Both the position numbers and the translations under genes were made by a program. The notes under the pieces are model-generated. The model had not been told where the DNA came from. It ran no database searches and was given only the letters and a program-made list of their open reading frames with translations. Shown here piece after piece: positions 1,435 to 41,938 of a DNA stretch of 64,000 nt. The stretch's first letter is position 1. The number at the start of each line of letters is the position of its first letter. This stretch comes from an uncultured candidatus Brocadiaceae bacterium (GTDB lineage: Bacteria > Planctomycetota > UBA1135 > UBA2386): positions 41,723-105,722 of the forward strand of contig CAYQMF010000002.1 in the NCBI GenBank assembly GCA_964418595.1, read 5' to 3'.

Positions 1435-1474
1435 CGGTGGGAGCGGGGCGCAGGCCGGTCAGGTTCTCGTGGAA

Positions 1475-4105
1475 TCAGTTCTCGTAGAAGATCGACACGC
1501 GCTTGATCTCGATGGTCGTCGCGCGGTCGTAGTTCAAGATGAGCTGGAATCGGACGGCGGTCGCCGAGTCCTGGTTCAGGTTGCCGGCGGCACCGCCGAA
1601 TGGGCCGACGAACTCGCGCCACGGAGCGGTCGGCGGCAGCGGCGTGCCGTTGTCGTCGCGGGTGCCCTGCACGACGAATCCCACGGCCTGGACCATCGGA
1701 GTCGCGCGCGTACCGGAGCCGCGAGTCGGATCGTCGCTGTAGACGATGCGCTGGCTGTCGACGATGGCCTCGACCTCGTAGCCGACCCAGCGGGGCGGCA
1801 CGACGTCCTGGAGCTGGTAGAAGAGCGACTGGAGACCGATCTGCTTGTCGCGATCGGTGAGGACACCGACGTTGCGCGGCCCGGCGGGCGGGAGGAGCTG
1901 ACCGATGCGCGCCGGATCGGGCTGCGTCGGTGCCTCGACGCGCACGTACCCGACGGAGCCGTCACCGCCGTACACCCGGATGCGATCGTCGTACTGGCCG
2001 AGCCCGAGCAGGAACTCGAACCGGCCGCCGGTGCCACCCAGCGCGCGCGCGGAGCCCGCGAGCGACATGTCGAGCCCGGTCTGCATCAGGATCGTGCCAC
2101 CCGAGCCGCCGCCGCCGGGGGTCGCGGGGCCCTCGCGGAGCGAACCGCCGGTCGCGCCGTTGCCGCCGCTCACGTCGATCACCGATTCCGAAGTGGTGAT
2201 GAGATCGCGACCCACGCGGAGCGCGATGGCGCCACCGCCGCCGCCGCCCGAGCCGCCCGCGTTCCAGAGGAAGAAGTCCCCCAACACGCGATAGAAGGTG
2301 TGCGCGCCACCGCCACCACCGCCGGCGCCGCCGGCGAGGTAGTGGACCAGCGAACTCACCGCCGGAGCGAGTGCAGTGGCGTCGAACGCGCGGCTCGCGG
2401 CGGTCTCGCCCTGACGCAGCCCCACCGGCTGGCTGTCGTTGCGCCCCGCGCCGCCGGGCGTCGTCATGCCGCCGCCGCCGCCCGGCGACGGGGCCATGAC
2501 CGACATCACGCCGAGGTAGGTGAAACGCACCTGGCTCAGCAGGCCCGAGTCCGGCCACTGCTTCGCGCCCCGTCCACCGGTGCCTTCCGTGTCTCTCCTG
2601 TACCCGTGCGTGCTCGCCACAGTGACGTCGCCGCCGTTGCCGCCGTCGAACAGCGGCTTGTTGGGGTTGCTCGGCAGGCCCATCGTCGCTTCGAGACTGC
2701 CACCGTCGCCGCCGCGCCCACCCCCCGCGCCGCCGGCGCTGCCAGGCTGGCCAGGGTAGTCGCGCGCGACTGCAGGCTTGGCCGGATAGCCAGGTGCGGA
2801 CGAGACGCCCTTGAGATCCAACGTCCCGGCGATCTCGCAACGGCCGCGGACGAACAACTTCACGGGCACGGGACCGGTGAAACGGATCGTGCGACCGGCG
2901 GGAATCACCAGGCGCGAGAAGTGGAACTCGCCGTCGGTGACCAGCTCTTCGACGCCGCTCAGCGTCGCCGACGCGGGGATGACGAAACCGCGGACGCCGT
3001 TGCGCTCATCGCGCTGGAGATCCCACAAGAACACGTCGCCGCCCAGGTCCTGACCGAGCGCCGCGTCGAACTCACCGTGTCGGCCGGAGCCCCCGATCCG
3101 CGCCGGCGTGACCGCCCCGCCCGACCACTCCCCGGCCGAGCGCTCGGCATCGAGCTGCTGCTGGGACGTGAACGACTCGATCAGCTCACGGCGCTCGAGC
3201 ACTGCGTTCTCGACCACGAACTGGAAGAGCTGCGGACGCGCCGCGGTGCCCGCAACGTCGCGCACGCGCGTGGTGATCTCGACCTGCACGCAACCCTCGG
3301 CGGGCAGCTTGCTACCCGGGATGAAGTTGACGATGGTGCGCTGGCGCGCGACATCCTGGACCAGGCGGAACGAGCCGCGTAGGGACAGTGCGGCCACCGT
3401 GGGATCGCACTCGCGCCCGCTCGCCCCGGCCCGGGTCGCCCGCACGCGGAACTGCACCGGCAGGCTTGCCAAGGGCGTCTGGAACGGAGCCGCGTCCAGG
3501 ATCTCGCTGAACTCGACGACGATCGCCGTGTCGCGCGGCGCACCCTGGGTGACCGAAGGCGTCACCAGCGTGGCGCGGGGCGGTTGCTCATCGAGGTCGA
3601 CGATGCCGCGCGAGACGCGCAGGTTGCACACCGTCTCGCGTGCGATGGAGTCGCCGGATGTCGAACGCACCGTCGCGTTGCCCGGTCCCGCCTGGCGCAA
3701 CACCAATCGGTACGAGGCCCCGTTCTTGAACCCGAAGAAGCTGCTGCTGCCCACGACCTGCACCTCGGGGGCGAACGTCACCTGGTTCCCATTCACGAGG
3801 AACTGGCCGACGGGCTCCTCGCCGGTCTCGGTCTTGATCTGGATCGTCGTGAAGTTCGCGGACGCCGGATCGACCGGCTTGTTGAACACGAACGTGATGG
3901 GCTGGTTCTGGGCGATCTCGCTGATGGAGCACCCGGAGGCGCCACAGCCCAGGTTGCACGAAACGACGCAGAACGTCGCGGCCGGCGTCCCGCTGCCGTC
4001 GTCGCAGGACGGTGTGGTCAGCGAACTTGCGCCGCCGCCGGTGGAACAACCCGCCAGACCCAGGAACAAGGCGAGGGCAGAGACAGAGATCGTTCGGAGC
4101 TGCAT
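1475..4105 (-). CDS. Giant secreted lipoprotein, paralog B (876 aa): lipobox, Cys-rich knot, Ig-like (SbsA/Big_5-like) modules, beta-solenoid-like core with poly-Gly runs, conserved C-terminal module
   Basis: ORF 1475..4678 trimmed to the internal ATG at 4105 (MQLRTISVSALALFLGLAGC, signal peptide plus lipobox). The 191 upstream codons are Arg/Pro-rich and look non-coding. Motifs: FCVVSCNLGCGASGCSISEIAQNQPITF, IVVEFSEILDAAPF, IGGSGRHGEFD, EFHFSRLVIPAGRTIRFTGPVPVKLFVRG, GGAGGGGGGAHTF, GGSGGGGGGAIALRVG, GGGGSGGTILMQTG. Confidence 0.85.
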   Translation of the reverse strand: MQLRTISVSALALFLGLAGCSTGGGASSLTTPSCDDGSGTPAATFCVVSCNLGCGASGCSISEIAQNQPITFVFNKPVDPASANFTTIQIKTETGEEPVGQFLVNGNQVTFAPEVQVVGSSSFFGFKNGASYRLVLRQAGPGNATVRSTSGDSIARETVCNLRVSRGIVDLDEQPPRATLVTPSVTQGAPRDTAIVVEFSEILDAAPFQTPLASLPVQFRVRATRAGASGRECDPTVAALSLRGSFRLVQDVARQRTIVNFIPGSKLPAEGCVQVEITTRVRDVAGTAARPQLFQFVVENAVLERRELIESFTSQQQLDAERSAGEWSGGAVTPARIGGSGRHGEFDAALGQDLGGDVFLWDLQRDERNGVRGFVIPASATLSGVEELVTDGEFHFSRLVIPAGRTIRFTGPVPVKLFVRGRCEIAGTLDLKGVSSAPGYPAKPAVARDYPGQPGSAGGAGGGRGGDGGSLEATMGLPSNPNKPLFDGGNGGDVTVASTHGYRRDTEGTGGRGAKQWPDSGLLSQVRFTYLGVMSVMAPSPGGGGGMTTPGGAGRNDSQPVGLRQGETAASRAFDATALAPAVSSLVHYLAGGAGGGGGGAHTFYRVLGDFFLWNAGGSGGGGGGAIALRVGRDLITTSESVIDVSGGNGATGGSLREGPATPGGGGSGGTILMQTGLDMSLAGSARALGGTGGRFEFLLGLGQYDDRIRVYGGDGSVGYVRVEAPTQPDPARIGQLLPPAGPRNVGVLTDRDKQIGLQSLFYQLQDVVPPRWVGYEVEAIVDSQRIVYSDDPTRGSGTRATPMVQAVGFVVQGTRDDNGTPLPPTAPWREFVGPFGGAAGNLNQDSATAVRFQLILNYDRATTIEIKRVSIFYEN

Positions 4106-4382
4106 TTGCTTCTCAGGGACGGCAAAACGGAGGGAACGGCGATACGGAGGGGAGCGGAGGAGGGCCTGTCCGCGCGAGCTCGGAGCACCTTGAAACCATA
4201 CCCGGTGCCCTGGCCGAACGCGGACACTCCTTGGTGTCTGTCGGATGGGAGGAGGGGCCGGCACCATAAACCAAGAACCATGCCGTGGAACCGGGGAGAT
4301 GCGGTTCGCGGTGCGGTCCGGCCGGGCCGGACGCCGGCGGCGAGCAACCGCCCAAGGCAAGGGGCGAGCGCGATTCGCCCGT

Positions 4383-4397
4383 TGGCACGGCACTGGC
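4383..4397 (+). promoter_or_regulatory. Candidate sigma-54 (-24/-12) promoter upstream of 4534..5565
   Basis: TTGGCACGGCACTGGCC compared with consensus YTGGCACGR-N3-TTGCW. The -24 half matches perfectly and the GG-N10-GC spacing is correct. The -12 half reads TGGC instead of TTGC. It lies 137 nt upstream of the ATG, and rpoN is encoded in this window. Confidence 0.3.
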
Positions 4398-4533
4398 CAT
4401 CCCGGGCGCTCGCCACGCGATGCGATGCCGGGCACTCGCCCCGCGTGCGAAAAGCCGCAGGTCGAGTGTTCGAGATCGCACCGCTCTGCGCTCGGGGTCG
4501 CGCCCGCAGGTGCAACCAGAGACCCCCGAGATA

Positions 4534-5565
4534 ATGTCCCTCCCGATGACCGAGACCCGACCCTCCCACCGCAACGGCGCATCCCTCGTCGTTGGCCTCG
4601 CCCTGCTGGCCGGAGGCGGCGGCGCCTGGTGGGACATCCGTTCCCGCTTCGACGACCTCGCCTCCCGCGCTGCCGCACTCGAGGCCTCCCAGGCCCGCGT
4701 CGAGCGGGCCATGCAACTGTTCCGCTTCGAGCGCGGGAGCAAGGGACTCGGCGTCACCGCCCTCCTCGAACACCTCCGGCACTGGGCGCCCCTGCTGTCC
4801 CTGTCGACCACCCCGCAGCGTGAGATCGGGGCGATCCAGGAACGGGTCGACGACCTCACCAAGGCCTTCGAGGCGATCGGCGCAGACGCGTACGAACCCC
4901 TGGTCGCCGCGTTCAAGAACGCCGCCCCCACGGAGGACGATCTCCGCAAGTGGCTGATCACGACCCTGCCCCGTCTGGACCGGGCACGCGGCATCGCACT
5001 GCTCGAGGAGACCGTGCGCGGCGTCGACCGCTCGGTGTCGCCACGCATCCGGGTCCACGCGGCAAACGTCCTGCTCGAGACCGACAAGGAACGCCTCGGC
5101 CGCGTGCTCGGAGAGCTGCTGACGTACGAGTCCGCGGCGGGAATCGACCCCACTCGTCTCCCGGCGGGTCTGCGGGAGGCGTTCGGCGCGGCCCAACTGG
5201 TGCCGGAGCGCATGCCGATGTTCTTCAACTTCATCGACCTGTTCGTCGCCACGGGCGCGAGCGACGTCGAAGAGAAGCTGATCATGGTCGCCGGGCGCCA
5301 GGATCACGACCTCGCGACCGTGCAGGCCTGCGTGAAGCAGCTCGGCGACCTGCGGTCGGTGCGCGGCGTGAAGGTCATCAAGCGACTCTACGACCGACCG
5401 CCGGAGATGATGGTCAACCCGATCTTCCAGGGACACTGCCTGGACGCAATCGGCAGGATCGAGGGGGCCGGCGCCTGCGATTACTTCAAGGAAATGCTCC
5501 GGCGCGGCCCCGACGAACGCGTCCACGCCAAGCTGACGGAGCTCATCAAGACCCACTGCCGGTGA
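4534..5565 (+). CDS. Membrane-anchored protein with coiled-coil and HEAT/ARM-like helical repeats; function unknown
   Basis: ORF 4285..5565 trimmed to ATG 4534 (MSLPMTETRP). There is a TM-like stretch ASLVVGLALLAGGGGAWW, followed by alpha-helical repeat-like sequence (RIRVHAANVLLETDKERLGRVLGELL; VQACVKQLGDLRSVRGVKVIKRL). Amino-acid composition is natural, unlike the antisense shadow ORFs. Confidence 0.7.
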   Translation: MSLPMTETRPSHRNGASLVVGLALLAGGGGAWWDIRSRFDDLASRAAALEASQARVERAMQLFRFERGSKGLGVTALLEHLRHWAPLLSLSTTPQREIGAIQERVDDLTKAFEAIGADAYEPLVAAFKNAAPTEDDLRKWLITTLPRLDRARGIALLEETVRGVDRSVSPRIRVHAANVLLETDKERLGRVLGELLTYESAAGIDPTRLPAGLREAFGAAQLVPERMPMFFNFIDLFVATGASDVEEKLIMVAGRQDHDLATVQACVKQLGDLRSVRGVKVIKRLYDRPPEMMVNPIFQGHCLDAIGRIEGAGACDYFKEMLRRGPDERVHAKLTELIKTHCR

Positions 5566-7392
5566 TCAGCGGGCCGGGCCCGCGGCGCGCGTGCGCAGCA
5601 GTTCGATGATGCGCGGATCGAACGCACTCCCCTGAGCAGCCCGCGCGATGTCGCGCTCTGCCTCCGCATGGCGGCCGAGCTGGCGCAGGTAGCTGGCGCG
5701 ATCGAAGAGCACGGAGCTGTGGTCGAGTCCGCTCGCGACGCTGCGGTCGAGCAGCGCGACGGCGAGATCGAGGCGCCCTTGCCGTGCCCGCGCCGACGCC
5801 GCGGTGCGGAACACGAGTCCCTTCGGCGGCGCGAACTCCAGACACGCCAGTGCCTGCGCCTCCGCTGCATCGAACCAGTGGGCCTCACCCGTCTCGCCGC
5901 CGACCGCGGCGAGGGCACGACTCGACAGCAGACGATCGAACGGATTGTGGGGTTCGGCTGCGACGAGGCGGTCGGTCGCCACGAGCGCCACCATCGCCCG
6001 GCCCGGCTCCGGCGACAGCAGGATGTGCAGCTCGGCGAGGTTGCGCAGCGCGGCGGCGTGATTCGGCCAGATCGCCACCGCGCGTTGGGTGAGCTGCAGC
6101 GCCGGTTGGAGTTCGTCGCACTCCATGTGGCAGAGAGCCAGGCCACACAGCGCTCGCACCGACCACGGCTGCGTCTGCACCATGCGCGTCCAGAGTGCCT
6201 TGGGGTCGCGGTACTCGACACTGCGCTGGGCCGCGAACGCCGCGAGCGTCAGCACCCCCACCGCGGCGACCAGCCGCGATGGCACGCTGACGAATCGGAT
6301 GCCCGGCAGGGCCTGGGCTGCCACCAGCGCGAGCCCGGCGAGCGGCCCATACATCCGATGCTCCAGGTACGGGGAGTTCAGCGGCAGGATCACCCAGGGC
6401 AGCGCCGTGGCCCACGCCAGTGCGGTGCCGAAGGCGCGGGCGGAACCCGCGGCCGGGCGGCGCAGGCCCAGCCATGCCAACGTCGCGACGAACACGGTGC
6501 CCGCCAGCACGCCCGGATGCCAGGGGGTGCGCACGTAGGTCACGTCGGGGTCGAGGGTGAGACCGAAGGGCACGACGCACTGCGCGATGGCCCGCGGCAG
6601 GAGCGTGGCCATCGTGCAAAGCTGCGTGAGGAGATCCCGGCCGTGCCCCGCCGTCACGTCCACGCCACTCACCAGGGCGGGCATCGCGGCGGTGGCCATG
6701 CCGAACAACTCGCGGCGCACGACCAGGTAGGTCAAGGCCACGGCCAGCGGCAGACCCTGTGCGAAAAGCCAGCGCCCGACGCGACCCCGAGCTCGCCACG
6801 GCGGATCCAGCGCCAGTAGCAGCCCGGGCAACACGACGCCCGTCTCCTTGCTCCCGCAGGCGACGGCGACGCAGATCGCGGTCACCGCGGCCCACGCGAG
6901 GCGCTCCCGCGCGCGCAGATGCGCCAGCACGCCGCCGACGATGCCGAGCGTCAGCAGCAGCTCGCTACGACCCGACACCGTGTTGACGGCCTCCGACGCC
7001 AGCGGGTGCACGGCGAACAGGCACGCTGCGACCAGAGCCGCGCGCGAGCGAGCGCCGAGCCGCGTCGCGAGGGCGAACACGCCGCCTGCAACGGCGATGT
7101 GGATCGCGAGGTTCGTGAGCTTGAACATCCACACCCCACCCTGCCCGATCGCGTGGTCGATCGCGTACGACACCAGCAGCACCGGCCGGTACATCCGGTT
7201 GTCGATCGCGCTGAACGCGTCGAGGTCGTGGAAGAAGCGCGGGAGGTTCGCGAGCGAGCGGATGGCCTCGTTGTCGCGCACCGAGTGCAGATCGTCGTAC
7301 ACGAACGCGCCGGTGAGCGCGACGCCGTACGCGATCACGGCGCAGGCCACGATCCACGCCCACGGCCAACGCACCGGCGCGACGTCAGACAC
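5566..7392 (-). CDS. GT-C-fold glycosyltransferase, PMT/TMTC-like: polytopic membrane N-terminal half plus C-terminal TPR repeats
   Basis: ORF 5566..7620. I propose a GTG start at 7392 (VSDVAPVRWPWAWIVAC), overlapping the upstream GT stop by 8 nt; the earlier codons are Arg/Ser-rich. Motifs AFVYDDLHSVRDNEAI, MYRPVLLVSY, NLAIHIAVAG and HPLASEAVNTVSGRSELL match the FVFDD..AI..N / YRP / HP..E.V pattern of TMTC/DUF1736-type enzymes. Many hydrophobic helices are followed by TPR-like repeats (AVAIWPNHAAALRNLAEL, LGRHAEAERDIARAA). Confidence 0.8.
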   Translation of the reverse strand: MSDVAPVRWPWAWIVACAVIAYGVALTGAFVYDDLHSVRDNEAIRSLANLPRFFHDLDAFSAIDNRMYRPVLLVSYAIDHAIGQGGVWMFKLTNLAIHIAVAGGVFALATRLGARSRAALVAACLFAVHPLASEAVNTVSGRSELLLTLGIVGGVLAHLRARERLAWAAVTAICVAVACGSKETGVVLPGLLLALDPPWRARGRVGRWLFAQGLPLAVALTYLVVRRELFGMATAAMPALVSGVDVTAGHGRDLLTQLCTMATLLPRAIAQCVVPFGLTLDPDVTYVRTPWHPGVLAGTVFVATLAWLGLRRPAAGSARAFGTALAWATALPWVILPLNSPYLEHRMYGPLAGLALVAAQALPGIRFVSVPSRLVAAVGVLTLAAFAAQRSVEYRDPKALWTRMVQTQPWSVRALCGLALCHMECDELQPALQLTQRAVAIWPNHAAALRNLAELHILLSPEPGRAMVALVATDRLVAAEPHNPFDRLLSSRALAAVGGETGEAHWFDAAEAQALACLEFAPPKGLVFRTAASARARQGRLDLAVALLDRSVASGLDHSSVLFDRASYLRQLGRHAEAERDIARAAQGSAFDPRIIELLRTRAAGPAR

Positions 7393-8557
7393 GCGCGGGC
7401 TCCCTGCGCAACGACCGGGACTCTGGCTTGAACCCGAGGCTCGCGAGGCTCGCGGCCAACCGACGCGCCAGGGCGACGGCCGAGAACTCGCGCTCGAATG
7501 CGGCACGCGCGTTGGCCGCGACTGCCGCGAGCGCAGCGCGGTTGACCGCGAGGCGCTGCAACTCGACGGCGAGCGCGTCTGCGTCACCCGCCGGCGCGAC
7601 CAGGACTTCTTCCCCCGCACGCAGCATCGATCGGATGGCCGGAGTGTCGGCCGTCAGGACCGGGCGACCGGCGGCGAGCCCGTGCACCACCTTGAAGGGC
7701 ACGACGAGTTGTGCCTTCCGCGAGCGGCCGAAGACGCCGGCAACGAGATCGCACGCGGCCATCCGCTTCTCCAGTTCGATCCGCGGCACGAACTCTTCGA
7801 GGAGGGTCACCTCCCCGCCGGGCGCAGCGGCGATCGTGCGACGATCGCGCTCGCTACCGCCGATCACCTGCAGGCTCACGCTGCCACGGCAGCGACGCAC
7901 CGCGCGCACGAGAACGTCCAGCCCGTGCAGGGGCACGCCGGTGCCGAAGAACAGCACGCGCAACGGTCCCGACGCCGGCAGTTGGTATGGCGCCGCGGTC
8001 TCCAGCGCGTCGGGATCCCCCACCGGCTGCCAGGCAAACCGCGAGACGGGCAGGCCGGTCAGCTCGGCGACCCGGAGCGCGTGATGCCTGGTGTCGAGCA
8101 GCACGAGGTTCGCATCGGTGCACGCACGCCGGTCGAACGCTCGCAGCAGGCGTGCGGCGAGCCCGCGTTGCCGCACCAACCTGCGGTCCTCGACCACGGT
8201 GTCGTGGGCCGAGAGGAAGAGATCGAGGAGGACCGGACCGACGAAGACGGAACGGGCGGTGCGCACCCAGGTGTGTCCGGGGTACGGAACGAACACGAGA
8301 TCGGGGCGCACCCGCTCGATCTCGCGCCGCAGTTCGCGACGGGCCGCGCGCTGTTCGCGAAGCGTGGCCAGCCCGACCAGCGGCCAGCACCAGGGCCGGC
8401 GGGCGAGCGCCGCCTTGCGACGACCCAGCAGAAGGGACGGGCGACGACACTCGGCGACTTCCCAGCCGAGCGACCGGAAGGACGCGAGGATCGAGGGGGT
8501 ACGCGGGTAGCCCGGCCCGTCATCCCAGGCGCCGAACACGAGAACGCGCGGGCTCAT
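7385..8557 (-). CDS. Glycosyltransferase, GT-B fold (group 1 / GT4-like)
   Basis: 390-aa ORF beginning MSPRVLVFGAWDDGPGYPRT. The C-terminal half is typical of GT4 enzymes (LRVLFFGTGVPLHGLDVLV, LVVPFKVVHGLAAGRPVLTADTPAIRSML). Its ATG overlaps the upstream GT2 stop as ATGA. Confidence 0.8.
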   Translation of the reverse strand: MSPRVLVFGAWDDGPGYPRTPSILASFRSLGWEVAECRRPSLLLGRRKAALARRPWCWPLVGLATLREQRAARRELRREIERVRPDLVFVPYPGHTWVRTARSVFVGPVLLDLFLSAHDTVVEDRRLVRQRGLAARLLRAFDRRACTDANLVLLDTRHHALRVAELTGLPVSRFAWQPVGDPDALETAAPYQLPASGPLRVLFFGTGVPLHGLDVLVRAVRRCRGSVSLQVIGGSERDRRTIAAAPGGEVTLLEEFVPRIELEKRMAACDLVAGVFGRSRKAQLVVPFKVVHGLAAGRPVLTADTPAIRSMLRAGEEVLVAPAGDADALAVELQRLAVNRAALAAVAANARAAFEREFSAVALARRLAASLASLGFKPESRSLRREPARV

Positions 8558-9573
8558 CGCGCAGCGTCATGCTCGCCGGAACGATCCAGGCGGAGGGCGG
8601 CGATCTGCTCGGACACCAACCCCAGGCCGAAGATCATGGTCGCCTGGACCATCAGCATCACCGCCATGTTGGTGAATCGGCCGTAGGCGAAGTAGGTGAA
8701 CGCGTACCACGCGACGCCCAACGTGAAGACCAGCGCCGCCACCGGACCGAACACGCGCAGCGGCGCGAAGAACGTCGCGATGCGCAGGATGATCATGACG
8801 AACCGGCTGCCGTCCTGCAGAAGCCGGATGTGGCTCTTGCCGCGCCGCGAACGCACCGCGATCGGGTGGAACGCCACCGAGTAGCCGGCGCGCAGCATCG
8901 CCAGCGTGATCGTCGTCGGATAGCTGAACGTGTTGGGCAGCAAGTACACGAACGACTTGAGCACGTCGGCACGCACCAGCCGGAACCCGCTCGTGAGGTC
9001 CGGGATCCGGCGACCGGTGACGTACGACGCCAGACCGTTGTAGATGCGGTTCGCGAGGTTGCGGTGCCACGCCCCGCCGCGTCCATCACGGGAGCCCACC
9101 ACCATGTCGTAGCGCTCCGCCAGCGCGAGCATCGCCGGGATCGCGGCGGGAGGATGCTGGCCGTCGCCATCCATGAGCAGCACCCAGTCGCGCGTCGCGG
9201 TCCGGATTCCGCGCTTCACCGCCGCGCCGTTGCCGAGCGAGTCGGCATGCGAGAAGACCGTGGCGCCGTGCGCGGCGGCGATCGCAGGCGTGGCGTCGGT
9301 CGAGCCGTCGTCGACGACCACGATCTGCACGTCGAGCCCCTGCGCCTGGATCGGCGCCAGCACGCGGTGCAGTTCGACGAGCAGCGAGCCCAGGTTGGCT
9401 TCCTCGTTCCGGGCCGGCACGGCGATCGTCACCGAAGTCACCCGGCGGACCGGCGGTGTCATCGGCGCCGCGGGCGCGGTGACCGGACCCGAGGCCATGA
9501 GCCCGCCGAGCGTCGGGGTCGCCTGGCTCACGTCCGGACCGGGCGGAGCGACGTCGCGAACGGTGGAGTTCAT
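8554..9573 (-). CDS. GT2 polyprenyl-phosphate sugar synthase-like enzyme (GtrB/DPM1/ArnC type) with two C-terminal TM helices
   Basis: VTIAVPARNEEANL, IVVVDDGSTDAT, LLMDGDGQHPP and DLTSGFRLVR form a GT-A DxD-type catalytic domain. It is followed by two hydrophobic helices (FVMIILRIATFFAPLRVFGPVAALVFTLGVAWY; MAVMLMVQATMIFGLGLVSEQI). The start could also be an internal Met. Confidence 0.85.
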   Translation of the reverse strand: MNSTVRDVAPPGPDVSQATPTLGGLMASGPVTAPAAPMTPPVRRVTSVTIAVPARNEEANLGSLLVELHRVLAPIQAQGLDVQIVVVDDGSTDATPAIAAAHGATVFSHADSLGNGAAVKRGIRTATRDWVLLMDGDGQHPPAAIPAMLALAERYDMVVGSRDGRGGAWHRNLANRIYNGLASYVTGRRIPDLTSGFRLVRADVLKSFVYLLPNTFSYPTTITLAMLRAGYSVAFHPIAVRSRRGKSHIRLLQDGSRFVMIILRIATFFAPLRVFGPVAALVFTLGVAWYAFTYFAYGRFTNMAVMLMVQATMIFGLGLVSEQIAALRLDRSGEHDAAR

Positions 9574-9652
9574 GCCGCCCGTGCTATCGACAAAACCGGG
9601 CAGCGAGTTGAGGCTTCGGGCGGGGGCGACGGCCGCGGTCGCCAGAAACGAA

Positions 9653-9686
9653 GCGAGGGGGCACGGCTCGCGCCGCGCCCCCTCGC
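9653..9686 (-). terminator. Strong GC hairpin just downstream of the pilin gene (terminator/attenuator candidate; no U-tract)
   Basis: gcgagggggc (9653-9662) is perfectly complementary to gccccctcgc (9677-9686), giving a 10-bp stem with a 14-nt loop. It lies 20-53 nt after the pilin stop at 9706. Confidence 0.4.
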
Positions 9687-9705
9687 GAATCGTCTGATCG
9701 GTCGA

Positions 9706-10434
9706 TCAGTTGACCACGGTCCAGCGCTGAGCGTCCTGGCCGGTGGTGTTGGAGGCGACGGTCGACGCCATCGTCGTGCCCGCGAAGGCGGCGTTGGGGT
9801 TCGGCCCGCGCGTCGTGCCCGTGTACAGGGTACCGGCGACGACGTTCGGGGCGGCCAGCACGTCGCCCGACTGGTTGACGAAGAAGGCGCGCTTGCCCGA
9901 GTTGCCGCGCGAGGCCGGCCACGCGTAGCAGCACCACAGCACCTCGGCCTGCGAGGCGTTGGGGTTGTTGGTCGCGCTCGCGCCACCCGTGGTCGCCTCC
10001 GGCATGAAGCCGGACGTGGCCGTGGGCAGGAACATCGCGAAGTAGTAGCCGGAGCGCAGGACGGCGCCACCGGTCGTGGTCGTGCCGCCCGCGAACGTGA
10101 CCGACGAGGTCGTGCCGAACGCGCCCGAGAGCACGGCCGGGGTGACGCGCGCGGTGGTCGACTGCGCACCGGTGCTCAGGCGGATACCGCGGGTGCCCGC
10201 CATCTCGCCGAAGTAGCCGTACTCGCCGGCGCCGTTGCCGTTGACGTCGATGGCGCCCGAGGCCTGCACCTGGGCCTGCGACGACGAGATGTTCTTCATC
10301 GTCGCGATAGCCGCCGACTCGTTCGCGTTGAGGCGAGCGCTCAGCAGATTGGGAATCGCGATGGACGCGATGATGGCGATGATCGCCACGACGATCATCA
10401 ATTCGATGAGGGTGAAGCCCTGTTGCTTCTTCAC
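9706..10434 (-). CDS. pilA: Type IV (pseudo)pilin, major-pilin candidate (242 aa)
   Basis: GTG start preceded by AAGGAG. N-terminus MKKQQG|FTLIELMIVVAIIAIIASIAIPNLLSARLNANESAAI is a class III signal with the G/F cleavage site, Glu5 and a hydrophobic alpha1 helix. The C-terminal half is Ser/Thr/Gly-rich (GTTSSVTFAGGTTTTGG, TTGGASATNNPNAS) and contains a CC pair (LWCCYAWP). Confidence 0.9.
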   Translation of the reverse strand: MKKQQGFTLIELMIVVAIIAIIASIAIPNLLSARLNANESAAIATMKNISSSQAQVQASGAIDVNGNGAGEYGYFGEMAGTRGIRLSTGAQSTTARVTPAVLSGAFGTTSSVTFAGGTTTTGGAVLRSGYYFAMFLPTATSGFMPEATTGGASATNNPNASQAEVLWCCYAWPASRGNSGKRAFFVNQSGDVLAAPNVVAGTLYTGTTRGPNPNAAFAGTTMASTVASNTTGQDAQRWTVVN

Positions 10435-10466: not shown

Positions 10467-10496
10467 ATTAGCGAGGAAACGCACGCCCCAGGTCAA
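10467..10496 (-). promoter_or_regulatory. Candidate sigma-70-type promoter for the pilin gene
   Basis: In - strand sense: TTGACC (plus 10491-10496), an 18-nt spacer, then GCTAAT (plus 10467-10472). This is about 35 nt upstream of the GTG start, with SD AAGGAG at plus 10442-10447. The -35 element overlaps the stop of the upstream TPR gene. Confidence 0.35.
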
Positions 10497-11386
10497 CGAC
10501 CCGGCTCAGCGTGCGCTGCCCCTTCGAACAGATCCATGAAGCGCCCGGTCGTGGCCATGCTCCGCCAAATGTCGGCGTCGCGGTCCACGAGCCGGCGAAC
10601 CTCGGGCCCCATGCCCTCGATCGCTCGCTCCAACATCTCAGTGGCGATATCGAACTCGCCGGCCTTGGCCTTGAGTCGCGCCGCCCGGTAGTTGCCCAAC
10701 GGTTGGGTCGGCCGCACGCGTTCGTACGTCGAAGCTGCGGTGGCATCGTCGCCAAGCTCTTCCAGCAGATCGCCGGCGTCGATCCAGGCGCGATCCGTCG
10801 GTTGCGCGTGGCCGGCGGCTGCGCGCGCGGCAACCAGCGCCTCAGCGGACCGATCGGCGCGGCGCAGGATCCGTGCCGTTTCGACCTCGGCAGCGGCGCG
10901 CGCCGTACCGAGCACGCCGCCCCCGGCCTGCAGGACCGACAGCGCCGCGGCATCATCGCCGGCCAAGGACAGCATCCTGGCCTCGTTCACGCGCAGTTCG
11001 CCCTTCGCGTCCTGCGCGTCGGCGGTGAGGAGGCCCTCTGCCCGGCGATACGACGCCGCGGCCGCCCGGGCGTCGCCGCGCAGGAAGTGGATGTAGCCGC
11101 GGTACTCCACCGCGAGCGGCGAGTCCTTGCGCAACGCCTCGGCCTGGGTGAGGTACGCCTCGGCGTCGCGGATGAGGGCTTCACGTACGGGAACCGGCGC
11201 ACCGTTGGCATCGGTCGGTGCGAGCTGGGTCGCGTAGCGGAGCTTGATCTCCGCCTGCAGGAGGAAGTGGTCCGGGCCAGGGGGGATCGACGCCGTGGCG
11301 CCGACGAAGACGAGTGCCGCAGCGACGCCCGCACCGAGTCCGTACCCGACCACACGCCGAATCGTGTTCCGTTGCATGGTTCGCAC
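10493..11386 (-). CDS. Membrane-anchored TPR-like repeat protein in the pilus operon (possible assembly/pilotin-like factor)
   Basis: 297-aa ORF with N-terminal anchor VVGYGLGAGVAAALVFVGA, followed by Ala/Arg/Glu-rich helical repeats (AEAYLTQAEALRKDSPLAVEYRGYIHFLRGDARAAAASYRRAEGLL). The start is GTG at 11386, with an alternative ATG at 11377. Confidence 0.7.
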   Translation of the reverse strand: MRTMQRNTIRRVVGYGLGAGVAAALVFVGATASIPPGPDHFLLQAEIKLRYATQLAPTDANGAPVPVREALIRDAEAYLTQAEALRKDSPLAVEYRGYIHFLRGDARAAAASYRRAEGLLTADAQDAKGELRVNEARMLSLAGDDAAALSVLQAGGGVLGTARAAAEVETARILRRADRSAEALVAARAAAGHAQPTDRAWIDAGDLLEELGDDATAASTYERVRPTQPLGNYRAARLKAKAGEFDIATEMLERAIEGMGPEVRRLVDRDADIWRSMATTGRFMDLFEGAAHAEPGR

Positions 11387-11395
11387 GCCCAGGCC

Positions 11396-12628
11396 TCAGC
11401 CGCCCGACAGCTTCTCCTGCAGCTTGAAGATCGGCAGGAACACGGCGAGCACGATGCCGCCGACGATCACGCCCATGACCGCGATCATGATCGGTTCGAT
11501 CATGGAGGTGAGACCCTTGACGTCGGCCTCGACTTGCTGGTCGTAGAACTCGGAGATCTTCTCGAGCAACGCGTCCAGTGCGCCGGACCGCTCGCCGATG
11601 CCGATCATCTTCGTCACCATCGGTGGGAAGACGTCGCTCTGACCCAGGGGCTCGGACAGCGATTCGCCGGCGCTGACGTTGGCCTTCGCCGCGTCGATCA
11701 CCTTCGAGATGACGAGGTTGCCGGAGGTCTCCGACACGATCTCCATCGCTGCCAGGATCGGCACACCGCTCTTGATCAGCGTCGAGAAGGTGCGGGCGAA
11801 CCGCGACAGGGCAACCTTCCGGAACAGCGGGCCGAACACCGGAAGCTTGAGGATCATCGCGTCCCACAGGTAGGCGCCCTTCGGCGTCTTCTTCCAGGCC
11901 CGCACCCCGAAGATCATGGCCGGGAACGAGAGCGCCATCAGCCACCACGAGTCGCGCATGAAGAACGCGAGGTCCATGATCGCGACCGTCAGCCCGGGGA
12001 GTTCCACCTCCAGCGAGTCGAAGACCGGCTTGAACGAGGGGACGATGCCCATCATCAGGAACATCGCGATACCGATGACCAGCACGAGCGAGATGACCGG
12101 GTAGGTCATCGCCGACTTGATCTCGGAGCGCAGATGTGCCGCGGCCTCCAGGTACTCGGAGAGCCGCGTCAGGATGACGTCGAGCTGACCCGACACCTCG
12201 CCGGCGCGGATCATGCTCACGTAGATGTCCGAGAAGACCTTGGGATGGACCTCCATCGACCTGGAGAGGTCGGCGCCCCCGCGGATGTCCTCCACCACCC
12301 TGGCCAGGCAGAAGCGGAAACCCGGGCTCTCCGCCTGATCCGCGAGGATGTCCAGGGCCTCCAGCATCGGGATGCCCGCGGACAGCATCGTGGAGAGCTG
12401 GCGGGTGAAGGTCTCGAGTTCGCCCTTCTTGACCGACGCCCTCTTGGCGACAGGGCGGGGCTTCGGTCCCTTGCGGAAGAGGGAACCCTTGGATTCGTCG
12501 ACCTGGAGCGGCGTCAGCCGGCGACGGCGCAGATCCGCCATCGCTTCGCTCTGCGTCGCCGCCTGAATGGTGCCGCTGACGGTGTTGCCAGTGGCGTCTT
12601 TCGCACGGTACTTGAACGTCGTCGTCAT
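11396..12628 (-). CDS. pilC: Type IV pilus / T2SS platform protein (PilC/GspF family)
   Basis: 410 aa with duplicated GspF-type domains (ELETFTRQLSTMLSAGIPMLEAL; LSRFARTFSTLIKSGVPILAAMEIV) and three TM segments. SD GGGGAG lies upstream. Confidence 0.92.
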   Translation of the reverse strand: MTTTFKYRAKDATGNTVSGTIQAATQSEAMADLRRRRLTPLQVDESKGSLFRKGPKPRPVAKRASVKKGELETFTRQLSTMLSAGIPMLEALDILADQAESPGFRFCLARVVEDIRGGADLSRSMEVHPKVFSDIYVSMIRAGEVSGQLDVILTRLSEYLEAAAHLRSEIKSAMTYPVISLVLVIGIAMFLMMGIVPSFKPVFDSLEVELPGLTVAIMDLAFFMRDSWWLMALSFPAMIFGVRAWKKTPKGAYLWDAMILKLPVFGPLFRKVALSRFARTFSTLIKSGVPILAAMEIVSETSGNLVISKVIDAAKANVSAGESLSEPLGQSDVFPPMVTKMIGIGERSGALDALLEKISEFYDQQVEADVKGLTSMIEPIMIAVMGVIVGGIVLAVFLPIFKLQEKLSGG

Positions 12629-12641
12629 CGTGTTCTCCCCT

Positions 12642-14354
12642 TCAGTCCGGCATGGTGACGCGCTCGACCTCTTCGATCGTGGTCACGCCCCGCATCACGT
12701 TTAGCAACCCGCAGCGGCGCAGCGTGAGCATGCCCTCCGCGAGCGCCGCCTGTTTCAACTCCGCCGCCGCACGTCGTTCGACCACCATGCGCTTGATGGT
12801 CTCGGACATGCGCATGGTCTCGAGCACCGCGAACCGGCCCTTGTAGCCGGTGCCACACCGCGGGCAGCCGACGGCCTTGTGCACCTGGAAGTCGGGCTTC
12901 GCCAGATCCTCCTCGGAGAACCCCAGCCGCAGGTACACCTCGCGCGGATAAGTCGTCTCGACCTTGCACGATGCGCACAGCTTGCGCGCCAGTCGCTGCG
13001 CGCAGATCAAGGTCGTGGCGCTCGCGATGTTGAACGGATCCATCCCCATGTCCACCATGCGGACGATGGTGCCCACCGCGTCGTTGGTGTGCAGGGTGCT
13101 CAGCACCAGGTGTCCGGTGAGTGCGGCCTTCACCGCGATCTCGAGCGTCTCCTGGTCGCGGATCTCGCCGAGCAGGATGACGTCGGGATCCTGACGCAGG
13201 ATCGAGCGCAGGGCGCCGGCAAAGGTCAGGCCGCGCTTGGGGTTCACCGGCACCTGATTGATCCCCTCGATCGTGTACTCGACGGGATCCTCGACGGTGA
13301 CCAGGTTGATCTCGGGATCCGCGATGTGCCGCACCGCCGAGTAGAGCGTCGTCGACTTCCCTGACCCCGTCGGTCCGGTGACGAGGATCATCCCGTAGGG
13401 ACGCTCCACCGCCCACTTGTAGTCCTCCATGCTCCGGGCCTCGAACCCGAGCGCGGCGATGTCGACCGCGAGGTTCGACGAGTCGAGGATCCGGAAGACG
13501 GTCTTCTCGCCCCACACCACCGGCAGAATCGACACGCGGAAGTCGATCGCCTTGTTGCCGAGCCGCATCTGGAACTTGCCGTCCTGCGGCCGCTGCTTCT
13601 CGGCGATGTCCAGCTTGGACATGATCTTGATGCGCGACGTGACGGTGTTCTGCATCCGCTTGGGCAGCGTCATCGCCTCGATCAGGCAGCCGTCACGGCG
13701 GTAGCGCACGATCATGCGCTTCTCGAAGGGCTCGAAGTGGATGTCGCTGGCGCCCTGCGAAACGCCGTCGGCGATGATCTTGTTCACCATCTTCACCACC
13801 GGCGACGATTCGTCGCTGATGGCATTGAGGTCCATGGCGTCGTCCTCGGCCGACTCCTCGCGAAGTTCGAGGTCGGAGTCGTCGAAGGCACCGAGGATGT
13901 CGCCTACGGCCTCTTCGTCGGATTTGTAGGCGACGCCCAGGGCCTGATCGATGGCCTCCTCCGTCGTGATCACGAGGCGGAGCTGACAGCCCGTGATGAC
14001 ACGGATGTCATCGAGTTGCAGCACGTCGAACGGATCGACGACCGCCAGCGTGAGCATGTTGCCGATCCGATCGATCGGGAAGATCCGGCGCTCCTTCACC
14101 ACGTCCGCTCCGACGACCTGCAGCACCTCCGGGTTGAACTTCACGCGCTGCAGGTTGATCGGTGGCACGTTCGCGACACGGGCGAGCAGCGCGAGGATCT
14201 CGTCGGCCGAACACAGGCCCTTCTTGGCGACCACGCTCGTGAGCGATGACTTGGACTGCTGCGCCTCCTGCAGGAGGGCTGCGCCCGCGTCCGGCGCGAT
14301 CTTCCCCGACTTCTCGAGGATGACGCGCAGCTTCTTGTCGAGCTGCAGGGTCAT
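12642..14354 (-). CDS. pilB: Type IV pilus assembly ATPase (PilB/GspE family)
   Basis: 570 aa with Walker A GPTGSGKSTT, Asp box, Walker B VILLGEIRD, His box TGHLVLSTLHTN and a tetracysteine motif CASC..CPRCGGTGYKGR-like (CASCKVE, CPRCGTGYKGRFAV). The N-terminus carries a GspE_N-type domain. Confidence 0.95.
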   Translation of the reverse strand: MTLQLDKKLRVILEKSGKIAPDAGAALLQEAQQSKSSLTSVVAKKGLCSADEILALLARVANVPPINLQRVKFNPEVLQVVGADVVKERRIFPIDRIGNMLTLAVVDPFDVLQLDDIRVITGCQLRLVITTEEAIDQALGVAYKSDEEAVGDILGAFDDSDLELREESAEDDAMDLNAISDESSPVVKMVNKIIADGVSQGASDIHFEPFEKRMIVRYRRDGCLIEAMTLPKRMQNTVTSRIKIMSKLDIAEKQRPQDGKFQMRLGNKAIDFRVSILPVVWGEKTVFRILDSSNLAVDIAALGFEARSMEDYKWAVERPYGMILVTGPTGSGKSTTLYSAVRHIADPEINLVTVEDPVEYTIEGINQVPVNPKRGLTFAGALRSILRQDPDVILLGEIRDQETLEIAVKAALTGHLVLSTLHTNDAVGTIVRMVDMGMDPFNIASATTLICAQRLARKLCASCKVETTYPREVYLRLGFSEEDLAKPDFQVHKAVGCPRCGTGYKGRFAVLETMRMSETIKRMVVERRAAAELKQAALAEGMLTLRRCGLLNVMRGVTTIEEVERVTMPD

Positions 14355-15448
14355 CGCTTCTTGCCGACCAGAGCCGATGTCGCGTTCGGACGCTGCGCCA
14401 GCCGCTCGAGATCCGAGAGGTCGGTGGAGTGGTTGATGGCATCCTCCCAGGTGATGTGGCCGCCCCGGAACAGGTCGTAGAGCGACTGGTTCATCGTCCG
14501 CATTCCGAACTGGCCACCGGTCTGCACGATCGATGCGATCTGGTGCGCCTTGTTCTCGCGGACGAGCGCGCGCACGGCCGGCGTACAGATCAGGATCTCC
14601 GATGCCAAAGCCCGGCCGCGACCATGCGCGCGCGGCACGAGTTGCTGGCAGATCACCGCCTGTAGGGCGAACGACATCATCGTGCGGATCTGCTGCTGCT
14701 GATGTGCCGGGAAGACGTCGACGACGCGGTTGACGGTCTGCACGACATCCGAGGTGTGCAGCGTGCCGAACGTCAGGTGACCGGTCTCGGCAAGGGTCAG
14801 CGCCGCCTCGATCGTCTCGAGGTCACGCATCTCGCCCACCAGGACGACGTCGGGGTCCTGGCGGACGACCGAGCGCAGCGCAGCGCCGAACCCGTGTGTA
14901 TCCGAGCCGACCTCGCGCTGGTTGATGAGGCAGCTCTTGTTGCCGTGCAGGAACTCGATCGGGTCCTCGATGGTGACGATGTGGCCCTGCTGCGACTGGT
15001 TGATGTGGTCGACCAGTGCCGCCAGGGTCGTGGACTTGCCGGAGCCCGTCGCGCCGGTGCACAGCACGAGACCGCGGTTCAGGGCGCAGATGTCCTCGCA
15101 GACCTTCCGGGGCAGACCCACCTGCTCGAAGTTGAAGACTTCGACGGGGATGATGCGAAGCACCGCGGCGATCGTGCCGCGCTGGATGAACGCGTTGGTC
15201 CGGAAGCGACCGAGGTTGGCGACGCCGAACGAGAAGTCCAGCTCCCAGTGCTTCTCGAACTTCGCGATCTGGTCGGTCGACATCACCGAGTAGATCAGCT
15301 TCTTGCTGACCTCCGGGGTGAGCGGCGGATAGTCGGTGTCGATCAGCCTGCCATCGACGCGCACCTTGGCAGGGCCGCCGACCGAGAGATGAAGGTCAGA
15401 GCCCCCCTGCTGCACCAGCAGGTTGAGCAGTTCTTCCATCGAAACCAT
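14351..15448 (-). CDS. pilT: Twitching-motility retraction ATPase PilT
   Basis: 365 aa: GGSDLHLSVG, Walker A GATGSGKSTT, VVLVGEMRD, TGHLTFGTLHTS and a PilT-type PAVRALVRENKAHQI motif (AIRNLIRE-like). Its stop overlaps the pilB ATG as ATGA. Confidence 0.93.
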   Translation of the reverse strand: MVSMEELLNLLVQQGGSDLHLSVGGPAKVRVDGRLIDTDYPPLTPEVSKKLIYSVMSTDQIAKFEKHWELDFSFGVANLGRFRTNAFIQRGTIAAVLRIIPVEVFNFEQVGLPRKVCEDICALNRGLVLCTGATGSGKSTTLAALVDHINQSQQGHIVTIEDPIEFLHGNKSCLINQREVGSDTHGFGAALRSVVRQDPDVVLVGEMRDLETIEAALTLAETGHLTFGTLHTSDVVQTVNRVVDVFPAHQQQQIRTMMSFALQAVICQQLVPRAHGRGRALASEILICTPAVRALVRENKAHQIASIVQTGGQFGMRTMNQSLYDLFRGGHITWEDAINHSTDLSDLERLAQRPNATSALVGKKR

Positions 15449-21658: not shown

Positions 21659-21706
21659 GAGCCGGAACGCTCTCGCGGGAGCGCTCCGGCCGCGGCGTGC
21701 ACCGGC

Positions 21707-25657: not shown

Positions 25658-25673
25658 GAGTGTGGGTCCGGGA

Positions 25674-29177: not shown

Positions 29178-29209
29178 CGTCGGAAAGCAGGGTCGTCGGA
29201 AAGCAGGGT
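29178..29209. repeat. Perfect 16-bp tandem duplication abutting the start codon of 25674..29177
   Basis: cgtcggaaagcagggt occurs twice (29178-29193 and 29194-29209). In mRNA sense this reads ACCCUGCUUUCCGACG ACCCUGCUUUCCGACG AUG. No Shine-Dalgarno sequence is visible. Confidence 0.9.
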
Positions 29210-29584
29210 GACGCTGGGCACGGACCCGCGCGGTCAGCTCCGCCTCGGAGCTTGGGGCACGCGTCGGCCGGGCCAAACGCCAGGGTTGGAAGTCAGCTTG
29301 GGGTCGCGAGATAGGCCCCACCGGAGGCTTCTTTCGTCGCACCAGGGGGGAGAGCTTGCTCAGAAGTCTACCGTCCTCCCGAACACGGTCATCGGCGAAG
29401 TTCGGAAGGCACGGCGTTGCGGTCGACCCGGCGGGGGCAACCACGGGTCAGGGCGCTTTCTTCAAGTCGCGTGCCGCGCCGAGACCGCACGCGACCCAGT
29501 CGTAACCGCCTTTCCTAGCTAAGGATACGGCGAGAGATGGGCAGCGGGTCGCGCACCGGACGCACTTGCCCGTGCGATCCCGCA

Positions 29585-41686: not shown

Positions 41687-41938
41687 GTGGTTGTTTCCGT
41701 GGGTCGCCGACTTCGCGCCGCGGCGTGCACCACCCGAGGGTAGAGCACGCGGCACCGCGCCTTCCCTTGTCGGCAGCCGGCGCCCAGAACTTGACCCTGG
41801 CAGCGCAGGATCCGCGCCAGGCTGGGAGATGTGGTCGGCGGAGAGCGGCAACACCGGCTGCGGCCGGGCCGCGCGGCGCCACAAGGGGCGAACGAACGCC
41901 CCGTCGGGCATGCACGCGAACAGGCGCCGCGGCGCCGT

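Follow-up and report, generated by a model that had tools for sequence, protein, structure and literature searches.

What is a set of three coupled glycosyltransferase (GT) genes doing immediately downstream of a type IV pilin gene, and which molecule does it glycosylate? The question is raised by a locus in the 64,000-nt stretch of DNA that we analysed (hereafter the window; G+C approximately 70%), which comes from contig CAYQMF010000002.1 of an uncultured candidatus Brocadiaceae bacterium, a member of the Planctomycetota. Directly from the DNA and its relatives we obtained the identities of the genes, the homology of the last encoded enzyme to the animal TMTC proteins, its GT-C fold, its predicted topology, and a clade-wide linkage of the cassette to the pilin gene. 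The interpretation that we favour, by a modest degree, is that the three genes are a pilin-accessory glycosylation cassette in the type IVa pilus locus of an uncultured Planctomycetota lineage, with the pilin as the acceptor. The features on which the question turns are the following (TPR, tetratricopeptide repeat; TM, transmembrane; HMM, hidden Markov model).

9706-10434, minus strand: major type IV prepilin, 242 amino acids (aa) (Pfam N_methyl, 5e-11)
9653-9686, minus strand: GC-rich hairpin, terminator- or attenuator-like (terminator scan and fold)
8554-9573, minus strand: GT2 of the polyprenyl-phosphate sugar synthase type, 339 aa (Glycos_transf_2, 2.8e-27)
7385-8557, minus strand: GT4 (GT-B fold), 390 aa (Glyco_trans_1_4, 1.7e-11; Glyco_trans_1_2; Glycos_transf_1)
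5566-7392, minus strand: GT-C/TPR protein, 608 aa, GTG start (identical to the NCBI-called protein P0001)
6223-7392, minus strand: membrane domain of the GT-C protein, residues 1-390, with 11 predicted TM segments (AlphaFold, HMM, loop charges)
5566-6222, minus strand: C-terminal TPR domain of the GT-C protein, residues 391-608, about six repeats (Pfam TPR; stop codon at 5566-5568)

Direct reading of the sequence places the GT4 start codon over the GT2 stop codon in an ATGA overlap (8554-8557), and the GT4 stop codon over the GT-C start codon in the 8-nt overlap GTGTCTGA (7385-7392). The gap between the pilin gene and GT2 is 132 nt long and contains a strong hairpin; translational coupling is limited to the three GT genes. 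A first-pass annotation of this DNA, which had proposed a periplasmic O-glycosylation cassette here, was accurate on these basic points: the four genes and their coordinates, both overlaps, the coupling of just the three GT genes, the enzyme motifs, and the presence of Ser/Thr-rich strings in the pilin can all be read as it had them. Third-position GC content is 0.88-0.95 for three of the four open reading frames (ORFs), the GT4 ORF lying outside the screen thresholds, and this composition, together with the existence of hundreds of homologues of GT-C and GT4, shows that the pilin and GT ORFs are real genes and not chance.

The most informative of the four proteins is the last. It contains the motifs FVYDD, RDNEAI, YRP and HPLASEAV, and in a set of 40 homologues nine residues never vary (D33, D34, H36, N41, R69, P70, H129, P130 and E134). 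Further motifs are RMYRP (residues 66-70, which includes the YRP), R142-S-E, K182-E-T, D281-P and E344-H-R-x-Y; HPLASEAV occupies residues 129-136. AlphaFold models of the full-length protein and of its N-terminal domain have confidence values (pLDDT) of 92 and 87, respectively. Foldseek searches with the N-domain model returned GT-C_A enzymes only–STT3, Pmt4, AglB, AftB, ArnT (TM-score 0.59), PglB, EmbB and Pmt1/2–which gives the membrane domain a GT-C_A fold, although matches at this level (E about 1e-3, TM-scores 0.5-0.6) cannot tell a TMTC-like from an ArnT-like enzyme, and there was no TMTC structure among the Foldseek/PDB matches. With the full-length model, TPR proteins dominate the Foldseek results, and PDB sequence searches with the membrane domain, whether as a single sequence or as a profile, gave TPR matches or noise only. 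Pfam has no match to the N-domain of the window protein; among 18 homologues, three reach PMT_2 (best 1.7e-6), two reach PMT and four reach DUF2079. The C-terminal domain matches the Pfam families TPR_1, TPR_16, TPR_12, TPR_2 and TPR_14, its best sequence and fold matches are the TPR domain of OGT and designed TPR proteins, and helical repeats occupy residues 397-603 of the AlphaFold model.

Comparison with characterized GT-C families gives a sharper placement. We took the N-terminal domains of human and Drosophila TMTC1-4, along with ArnT (5EZM) and Pmt1 (6P25), from Additional file 1 of PMC7801869. An HMM built from 18 planctomycete members of the family scored 73-101 bits on all eight TMTCs, over HMM positions 9-379; on ArnT and Pmt1 it scored 4.9 and 2.1 bits, which is noise. 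Profile comparison by hhalign gave a probability of 99.7% for TMTC (E = 2.9e-26, 358 columns), as against 1.0% for ArnT and 0.2% for Pmt1, and in a BLASTP search the window protein matched human TMTC3 with 27% identity over 187 aa (1.9e-20). Because the TMTC scores are high while those of ArnT and Pmt1 are at noise level, the TMTC-type call made at first pass is correct by sequence, and the competing placement with ArnT-type enzymes finds no footing in these scores. On this evidence the membrane domain is a true homologue of animal TMTC1-4.

The TMTC motifs are kept to differing extents. Motif M1 is the invariant pair D33-D34. Only the YRP part of M2 (SHKSYRP) is present, within RMYRP, the SHKS part being unconserved. 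M3 (RxD) corresponds to R142-S-E144, with an invariant Arg and a variable acidic residue, and M4 (KE(T/Q)xxT) to K182-E183-T184, with invariant K and E. In M5 (DW) the Asp is kept as D281 and the Trp is replaced by an invariant Pro, and in M7 (ERxxY), which reads E344-H-R346-x-Y348, the Arg is shifted by one position. Pfam DUF1736, which covers the TM7-TM8 loop, was matched by 0/18 family members at E ≤ 1; the HMM does align with TMTC across this region. Some members of the family bear the JGI name "protein O-mannosyl-transferase". A search with the membrane-domain profile reached 91,773 clusters (50% identity) at E ≤ 1e-3 and 57,094 at E ≤ 1e-10, animal TMTCs included, so that TMTC-like GT-C enzymes, as defined by profile matches, are a very large family; the count pools its bacterial and TPR-bearing shares. 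The supposition at first pass that no bacterial enzyme of TMTC architecture with a defined protein substrate had been characterized goes too far, as the pilin glycosyltransferase TfpW of Pseudomonas aeruginosa has this architecture. The gap in earlier work was overstated in a second respect also, since full-length prokaryotic TMTC homologues had already been noted, as "not yet well characterized", by Eisenhaber and colleagues (PMC7801869). The transferase activity of TMTCs was itself argued largely from sequence analysis (PMC7801869).

On which side of the membrane would this enzyme work? We derived a topology from the model helices together with loop charges counted in 40 homologues. Lys plus Arg amount to 0.22-0.30 per residue in the N-terminus and five short predicted cytoplasmic loops, where acidic residues are almost absent, and to 0.06 per residue in loops EL1, EL2 and EL4, where acidic residues are in excess. 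Because of this positive-inside pattern we predict 11 TM segments with the N-terminus inside, and a periplasmic position for the DD motif (in periplasmic loop 1; codons of D33-D34 at 7291-7296), for the other conserved motifs, and for the TPR array, in keeping with the first-pass expectation that the DD motif faces the periplasm. Published descriptions give the TMTCs and TfpW the same topology. The predicted active site and TPR array are thus on the same side as the globular domain of the pilin, and we presume that the TPR domain is an acceptor-binding module.

The GT2 protein can also be assigned to a class. In a PDB search its residues 44-330 aligned to residues 6-301 of the 322 in ArnC (3e-18), the C-terminal membrane part included, and it also matched the dolichol-phosphate mannose synthase (DPMS) of P. 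furiosus (1e-13) and GtrB (5e-11). Its GT-A catalytic domain carries the motifs VPARNEE, VVDDGS, MDGDGQH and TSGFR, and two hydrophobic helices can be read at its C-terminus. From the ArnC/DPMS/GtrB alignment, the DDGS, DGD and SGFR motifs and the two C-terminal helices, we assign it as a polyprenyl-phosphate sugar synthase of the ArnC/DPMS/GtrB class, so the label of GtrB-like synthase that it had been given stands. Its best NCBIfam matches are AglJ (3e-31), Dol-P-hexose transferase, ArnC and PgfS; because every one of these equivalog scores is far below its cut-off, they do not name the sugar. There are no DprE-like genes, and no GtrA- or ArnE/F-type families, among the window ORFs scanned.

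The GT4 protein has no membrane segment, and its PDB and NCBIfam matches are generic only. The homologues listed in our search number at least 120, are all 367-409 aa long and 47-77% identical to it, and come from Planctomycetota wherever the source names an organism; there was no functional hint among the matches listed. The overlap between GT4 and GT-C, of 4 or 8 nt, is kept in 5/5 called orthologous loci.

The candidate acceptor is a prepilin with the leader MKKQQG and the mature N-terminus FTLIELM. It has a partial match to the NCBIfam model typeIV_PilA_Myxo (1.6e-14), besides a weak match to DUF2950, and its orthologues (n = 54) are 54-76% identical. Both of the Ser/Thr-rich strings that had marked it as a possible acceptor, GTTSSVTFAGGTTTTGG and TTGGASATNNPNAS, are indeed present. 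In the orthologues sampled, serine and threonine account for 14-23% of the globular part, a content that is compatible with O-glycosylation and not diagnostic of it. The window pilin has only two cysteines, which are adjacent (LWCCYAWP, residues about 167-169), and the first is replaced by Ala in many orthologues; the C-terminal disulfide loop of type IVa pilins therefore seems to be absent.

The hairpin between the pilin gene and GT2 begins 20 nt past the pilin stop codon and has 15 bp, 13 of them G-C pairs, followed by the tail TTCGTTTCTG. The folding energy of the whole intergenic region is -78.4 kcal/mol (z = -5.5). Of 55 orthologous intergenic regions, 42 have an uninterrupted hairpin of at least 7 bp 3' of the pilin gene, with a T-tract being rare, but in a genome of 70% G+C this count is only suggestive. 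Terminators that follow pilA and damp the expression of accessory genes are recognized in pilin-accessory cassettes of P. aeruginosa and other bacteria (PMC11841053), so the hairpin fits the reading of the locus as a glycosylation cassette. We regard it as a terminator- or attenuator-like element that would separate a highly expressed pilin gene from its accessory genes.

The genes that flank the pilin and the cassette are these.

14351-15448, minus strand: PilT (Pfam T2SSE)
12642-14354, minus strand: PilB (Pfam T2SSE, MshEN)
11396-12628, minus strand: PilC (Pfam T2SSF; NCBIfam GspF/PilC)
10493-11386, minus strand: TPR-like protein, 297 aa, signal-anchored (sub-threshold TPR matches)
4285-5565, plus strand: HEAT-repeat gene, convergent, the downstream neighbour of the GT-C gene

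The gene order on the minus strand is thus PilT-PilB-PilC-TPR protein-pilin-GT2-GT4-GT-C, and, with GT2 and GT4 in between, 2.3 kb separate the pilin gene from the GT-C gene downstream of it. We counted gene order in species-level genome loci, which are from Planctomycetota metagenome-assembled genomes (MAGs) wherever the source names the organism and whose GT-C proteins are 38-78% identical to that of the window. The order GT2-GT4-GT-C was present in all 56 loci with enough upstream DNA, and the pilin gene was upstream of GT2 in 45 of 46. Where at least 9 kb of upstream DNA was available, 43 of 44 genomes had the complete order from PilT to GT-C, down to a GT-C identity of 38%. At six or more loci (L027, L044, L054, L058, L060 and L072) one or two extra tandem pilin copies lie between the first pilin gene and GT2. 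These paralogues have the same GFTLIELMIVVAIIAIIA N-terminus and account for pilin-GT2 gaps widened by approximately 1-2 kb; since the inserts are themselves pilin copies, the adjacency of pilin and GT genes is preserved. The block is also retained by more divergent orthologues (281-341 bits), some of whose loci have a second, oppositely oriented GT4 gene. Where this additional gene lies between the GT4 and GT-C genes (L081, 6768-7937; L082, 5912-7057; L083, 6640-7908), their translational coupling is broken.

The other side of the cassette is less constant. The HEAT and GT-C genes end back to back in the window, their stop codons occupying 5563-5568 with zero bases between. Of 48 loci, 23 have a HEAT gene beside the GT-C gene and 13 have it at a greater distance; in the other 12 the fetched stretch contains none. 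A TatD gene is sometimes found between the two. The junction between the pil and GT genes is therefore the most stable feature of the neighbourhood, which argues for selection and not for inertia alone.

Several observations weigh against the pilin as acceptor, and three other explanations draw on them. The first is that the adjacency has no meaning: the GT cassette would be an independent unit that has been retained beside the pil genes in a slowly rearranging lineage, with a substrate unrelated to the neighbourhood. All genes of the block do follow one tree, with distance correlations of 0.82-0.92 to PilT, PilB and PilC, and because the block is vertically inherited, part of its synteny may be inertia. 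The hairpin could be a full terminator, and at L035, the one exception at the pilin junction, there is no pil gene within 7.8 kb upstream of GT2, the insertion there being at least 7.8 kb long. We nevertheless consider this explanation improbable, since about half of the genomes show rearrangement on the other flank, against a pil-GT junction that has survived in 45 of 46, and since what has been inserted at the junction is either pilin copies or one secreted protein, and never a break-up. The L035 insertion starts with a CarboxypepD_reg/Big_1 gene (2075-3895), and a gene of the same kind lies between pilin and GT2 in L006/L030 (3514-5796), so in L035 the pilin gene may be just past the fetched stretch. 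The CarboxypepD_reg/Big_1 protein is secreted and 600-760 aa long; in L035 its gene is followed by those of a Uma2 endonuclease and a beta-lactamase/BTRD1 protein.

The second explanation is a general periplasmic O-glycosylation system that modifies several envelope proteins, with the pilin as one substrate or none. The envelope proteins nearest at hand are Ig-like (Big_5) proteins, whose genes flank the locus on both sides.

1-1458, 1475-4678, 19775-21658 and 25674-29444, minus strand: Big_5 (Ig-like) proteins (Pfam Big_5)

They belong to a set of very large ORFs (600-1300 aa) at 1-4678 and 19775-29444, on either side of the pil/GT block, most of which have weak Big_5 matches; some of these ORFs, and not all, have lipobox-like motifs. 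The homology to TMTCs is real, and by analogy with TMTCs, which act on the beta-sandwich domains of cadherins, Ig-like domains would be among the acceptors. A HEAT/Big_5/Big_5 set is downstream of GT-C in the five orthologous loci checked first (5/5), many other loci have a Big_5 homologue, and TPR domains can take many clients. Coevolution analysis also gave no pilin-specific signal: the partial Mantel (mirror-tree) correlation between the globular part of the pilin and the TPR domain of GT-C was r = 0.10 (p = 0.12). In the mirror-tree residuals, co-variation was seen among the GT genes themselves (0.30-0.52) and, just as strongly, between these genes and that of the 297-aa TPR protein (0.30-0.51); saturation of fast-evolving genes may explain the outcome elsewhere. 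Set against this, the HEAT gene is adjacent in 23 of 48 loci whereas the pilin is linked in 45 of 46, so that downstream synteny decays; the convergent HEAT gene splits the Big_5 genes from GT-C, which means that they are not co-transcribed; and the comparable enzymes TfpO and TfpW, encoded directly after the pilin gene, are pilin-specific. The Big_5 lipoproteins proposed as acceptors at first pass could thus still be such, but their linkage to the cassette is weaker than that of the pilin, and we judge a general system of this kind to be unlikely.

The third explanation is that the product is a non-protein glycan, such as an exopolysaccharide, a decoration of lipopolysaccharide (LPS) or lipid A, or a lipoglycan. 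GT4 would then make a glycolipid or lipid-linked primer, GT2 the polyprenyl-phosphate-sugar donor, and GT-C the periplasmic extension, with the TPR domain as a scaffold like those of BcsC- and PgaA-type systems; the pil neighbourhood would reflect either a tie between pili and surface glycan or inertia. The pairing of a GT2 with a GT-C is also the logic by which lipid A and O-antigen are modified by ArnC/ArnT and GtrB/GtrV, GT4 enzymes are typical of glycan assembly, and a strong hairpin stands between the pilin and the GT genes. There is, moreover, a GT-C/TPR paralogue of 646 aa, 32% identical to the window enzyme, in a gene cluster without a pilin (L078, 1-7941; GCA_040219065.1). Its gene overlaps a GT4 gene by 4 nt, and the cluster includes a Wzx-type flippase (Polysacc_synt) and more GT4 genes, which suggests, going by gene content, that TMTC-like enzymes also act in polysaccharide-type pathways. 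However, the GT4 beside this paralogue is unrelated to the GT4 of the window, the window enzyme is far closer in sequence to TMTC1-4 than to ArnT, the block has no polymerase, exporter or chain-length gene, and the cassette stays at the pilin gene through insertions and pilin duplications. A non-protein product is accordingly somewhat less probable, in our view, than a general protein glycosylation system, and somewhat more so than a meaningless adjacency.

The remaining points against the pilin as acceptor are these. The Ser/Thr-rich string GTTSSVTFAGGTTTTGG is unconserved, being a lineage-specific insertion found only in the window pilin and its closest relative, and we therefore rejected the Ser/Thr-rich stretch as a marker of the glycosylation site. 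The cassette has no flippase gene, and for the step taken by GT4 there are only guesses: it might extend the lipid-linked sugar or make some other intermediate. The signature YX6PFX7P, found in periplasmic loop 4 of TfpW, is unmatched in the window GT-C protein, which has PF-x5-P only: it reads RAIAQCVVPFGLTLDPDV, that is, P275-F276-x5-P282, with no Tyr six residues before. In a Deltaproteobacteria MAG, Acidobacteriota and Ca. Uabimicrobium, no prepilin motif lay within 10 kb of the distantly related GT-C/TPR proteins, so the link to pilin is specific to the clade of the window and is not general to bacterial TMTC-like enzymes, which as a whole clearly serve other acceptors too. Finally, the organisms concerned are known as MAGs only.

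With the pilin still favoured as the acceptor, the cassette might work as follows. The pilin gene would be strongly transcribed, and the hairpin past its stop codon would pass only part of this transcription onward into the three coupled GT genes. GT2, held in the membrane by its two C-terminal helices, would work at the cytoplasmic face, where it would charge polyprenyl phosphate with a sugar taken from a nucleotide sugar. The cytoplasmic GT4 would probably add a second sugar to this lipid-linked sugar, or else make another cytoplasmic intermediate. Some flippase encoded outside the cassette would turn over the lipid-linked glycan. In the periplasm, the TPR array of GT-C would grip the globular domain of the membrane-anchored pilin, and the enzyme would transfer the glycan to pilin Ser/Thr residues through its periplasmic DD site before the pilin enters a pilus. 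In this scheme the acceptor and its O-linkage, the identity of the sugar, the step given to GT4, and the flippase are inferred.

A more specific version of the proposal, which we put forward tentatively as a possibility, is that an orthologue-grade bacterial relative of the animal TMTCs has a type IV pilin as its natural substrate and performs the final step of a self-contained cassette, with the DPMS-like GT2 and the coupled GT4 building a polyprenyl-monophosphate mono- or disaccharide by an archaeal AglJ-like logic that is applied here to bacterial O-glycosylation. If this were true, the pilin would be the first defined substrate of a prokaryotic TMTC, and it would suggest that the TMTC-type glycosylation of folded adhesion domains began with bacterial surface filaments. 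TMTC enzymes have medical relevance, as mutations in TMTC3 cause cobblestone lissencephaly, and glycosylation of Pseudomonas pilins protects against pilus-specific phages. The four-gene cassette is compact and open to testing in a heterologous host, with a specific substrate predicted for its bacterial TMTC homologue, and it suggests that pilin glycosylation occurs in widespread environmental Planctomycetota.

The remainder of the type IVa pilus genes lie approximately 25 kb away, at 34-45 kb of the window, also on the minus strand.

44046-45068, minus strand: PilM (window scan)
43389-44033, minus strand: unannotated ORF, 214 aa, possibly PilN
41939-43372, minus strand: PilO-domain protein, 477 aa (window scan)
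39854-41911, minus strand: PilQ secretin (window scan)
34279-35400, minus strand: second PilT-like ATPase (window scan)

With PilM, a PilO-like protein, PilQ and a second PilT in the window, the pilus system is complete, and the pilin at 9706-10434 is the one beside PilB, PilT and PilC. The 297-aa protein at 10493-11386, between PilC and the pilin, has weak matches to TPR_16, PilW and TPR_END_plus, all of them sub-threshold. It is present at each orthologous locus, with 28-45% identity, and may be a PilF/Tgl-like assembly factor.

How does the cassette compare with known systems? Members of the TMTC family transfer mannose from dolichyl-phosphate mannose to Ser/Thr of a folded beta-sandwich domain. 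The window enzyme resembles TMTC1-4 (CAZy GT105) in the full-length homology of its 11-TM domain, in its C-terminal TPR array, predicted to lie on the non-cytoplasmic side, and in the logic of a polyprenyl- or dolichyl-phosphate-sugar donor. The motifs common to both are FVxDD, YRP, LFAVHP..EAV..GR.(D/E)LL, KE(T/Q)G, the Asp of DW, and P(F/W)..P..N...E.R.Y. Unlike the TMTCs, the window enzyme is bacterial and shares a cassette with a GT2 of its own and a GT4. Its TPRs number about six as opposed to 8-10, and the acceptor predicted for it is a type IV pilin in place of the EC domains of cadherins.

A second set of comparators is the three-component systems GtrA/GtrB/GtrV, ArnC/ArnEF/ArnT, GacI/GacK/GacL, Pgf of S. 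mutans and the actinobacterial Ppm1/Pmt. In these, as proposed here, a membrane-anchored GT2 makes a polyprenyl-phosphate-monosaccharide and a GT-C enzyme transfers the sugar on the outer face of the cytoplasmic membrane, and the window GT2 matches ArnC, GtrB and PgfS. The window differs in having no GtrA- or ArnE/F-type flippase among its scanned ORFs, in the extra cytoplasmic GT4 coupled to the GT-C gene, and in the TPR domain of the GT-C enzyme. The predicted protein acceptor is a likeness to Pgf and Pmt and a difference from Gtr and Arn.

In Haloferax, soluble GTs extend a dolichyl-phosphate-hexose made by AglJ, after which a GT-C enzyme moves the oligosaccharide to protein. AglJ is the best NCBIfam match of the window GT2, below the cut-off as noted above, and the AglJ/AglB logic would, by analogy only, give the window GT4 a role. 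AglB, however, is an STT3-type N-oligosaccharyltransferase and not a TMTC-type enzyme, and a lipid-linked oligosaccharide is not in evidence here. We rejected another candidate comparator, the cyanobacterial Ogt that modifies PilA, because it is a cytoplasmic GT41 enzyme.

The closest functional precedent is TfpW, the group IV pilin arabinosyltransferase known from the work of Kus 2008, Harvey 2011 and the Villela 2020 preprint. Our comparison with it is by published description. TfpW, from P. aeruginosa Pa5196/PA7, is a GT-C enzyme of 646 aa with 11 TM segments. Periplasmic loop 1 holds an essential DDX motif, the C-terminal TPR domain is periplasmic and resembles the one in OGT, and ArnT is the structural template that fits the protein best (bioRxiv 10.1101/2020.04.19.049825). 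Its gene is directly downstream of pilA, and the enzyme is both required and sufficient for moving D-arabinofuranose off a polyprenyl-phosphate donor and onto Ser/Thr residues of the pilin in the periplasm (bioRxiv 10.1101/2020.04.19.049825). The window enzyme is alike in its predicted topology (11 TM segments, N-terminus inside), the DD motif in periplasmic loop 1 and the periplasmic C-terminal TPR domain, and the genes are alike in lying downstream of a pilin gene, with a hairpin after it as in known cassettes. They are unlike in that tfpW is the first gene after pilA, whereas here GT2 and GT4 precede GT-C, and in that the TfpW donor, decaprenyl-phosphate-D-arabinofuranose, comes from a DprE1/DprE2 pathway encoded elsewhere, whereas here a GT2 is in the cassette. 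Given the TfpW precedent, a GT-C/TPR enzyme encoded after pilA that glycosylates the pilin would be no new principle. What sets this cassette apart from TfpW is the unmatched YX6PFX7P signature, a DPMS/ArnC-class GT2 of its own, a coupled GT4, and perhaps also an enzyme that is demonstrably TMTC-like.

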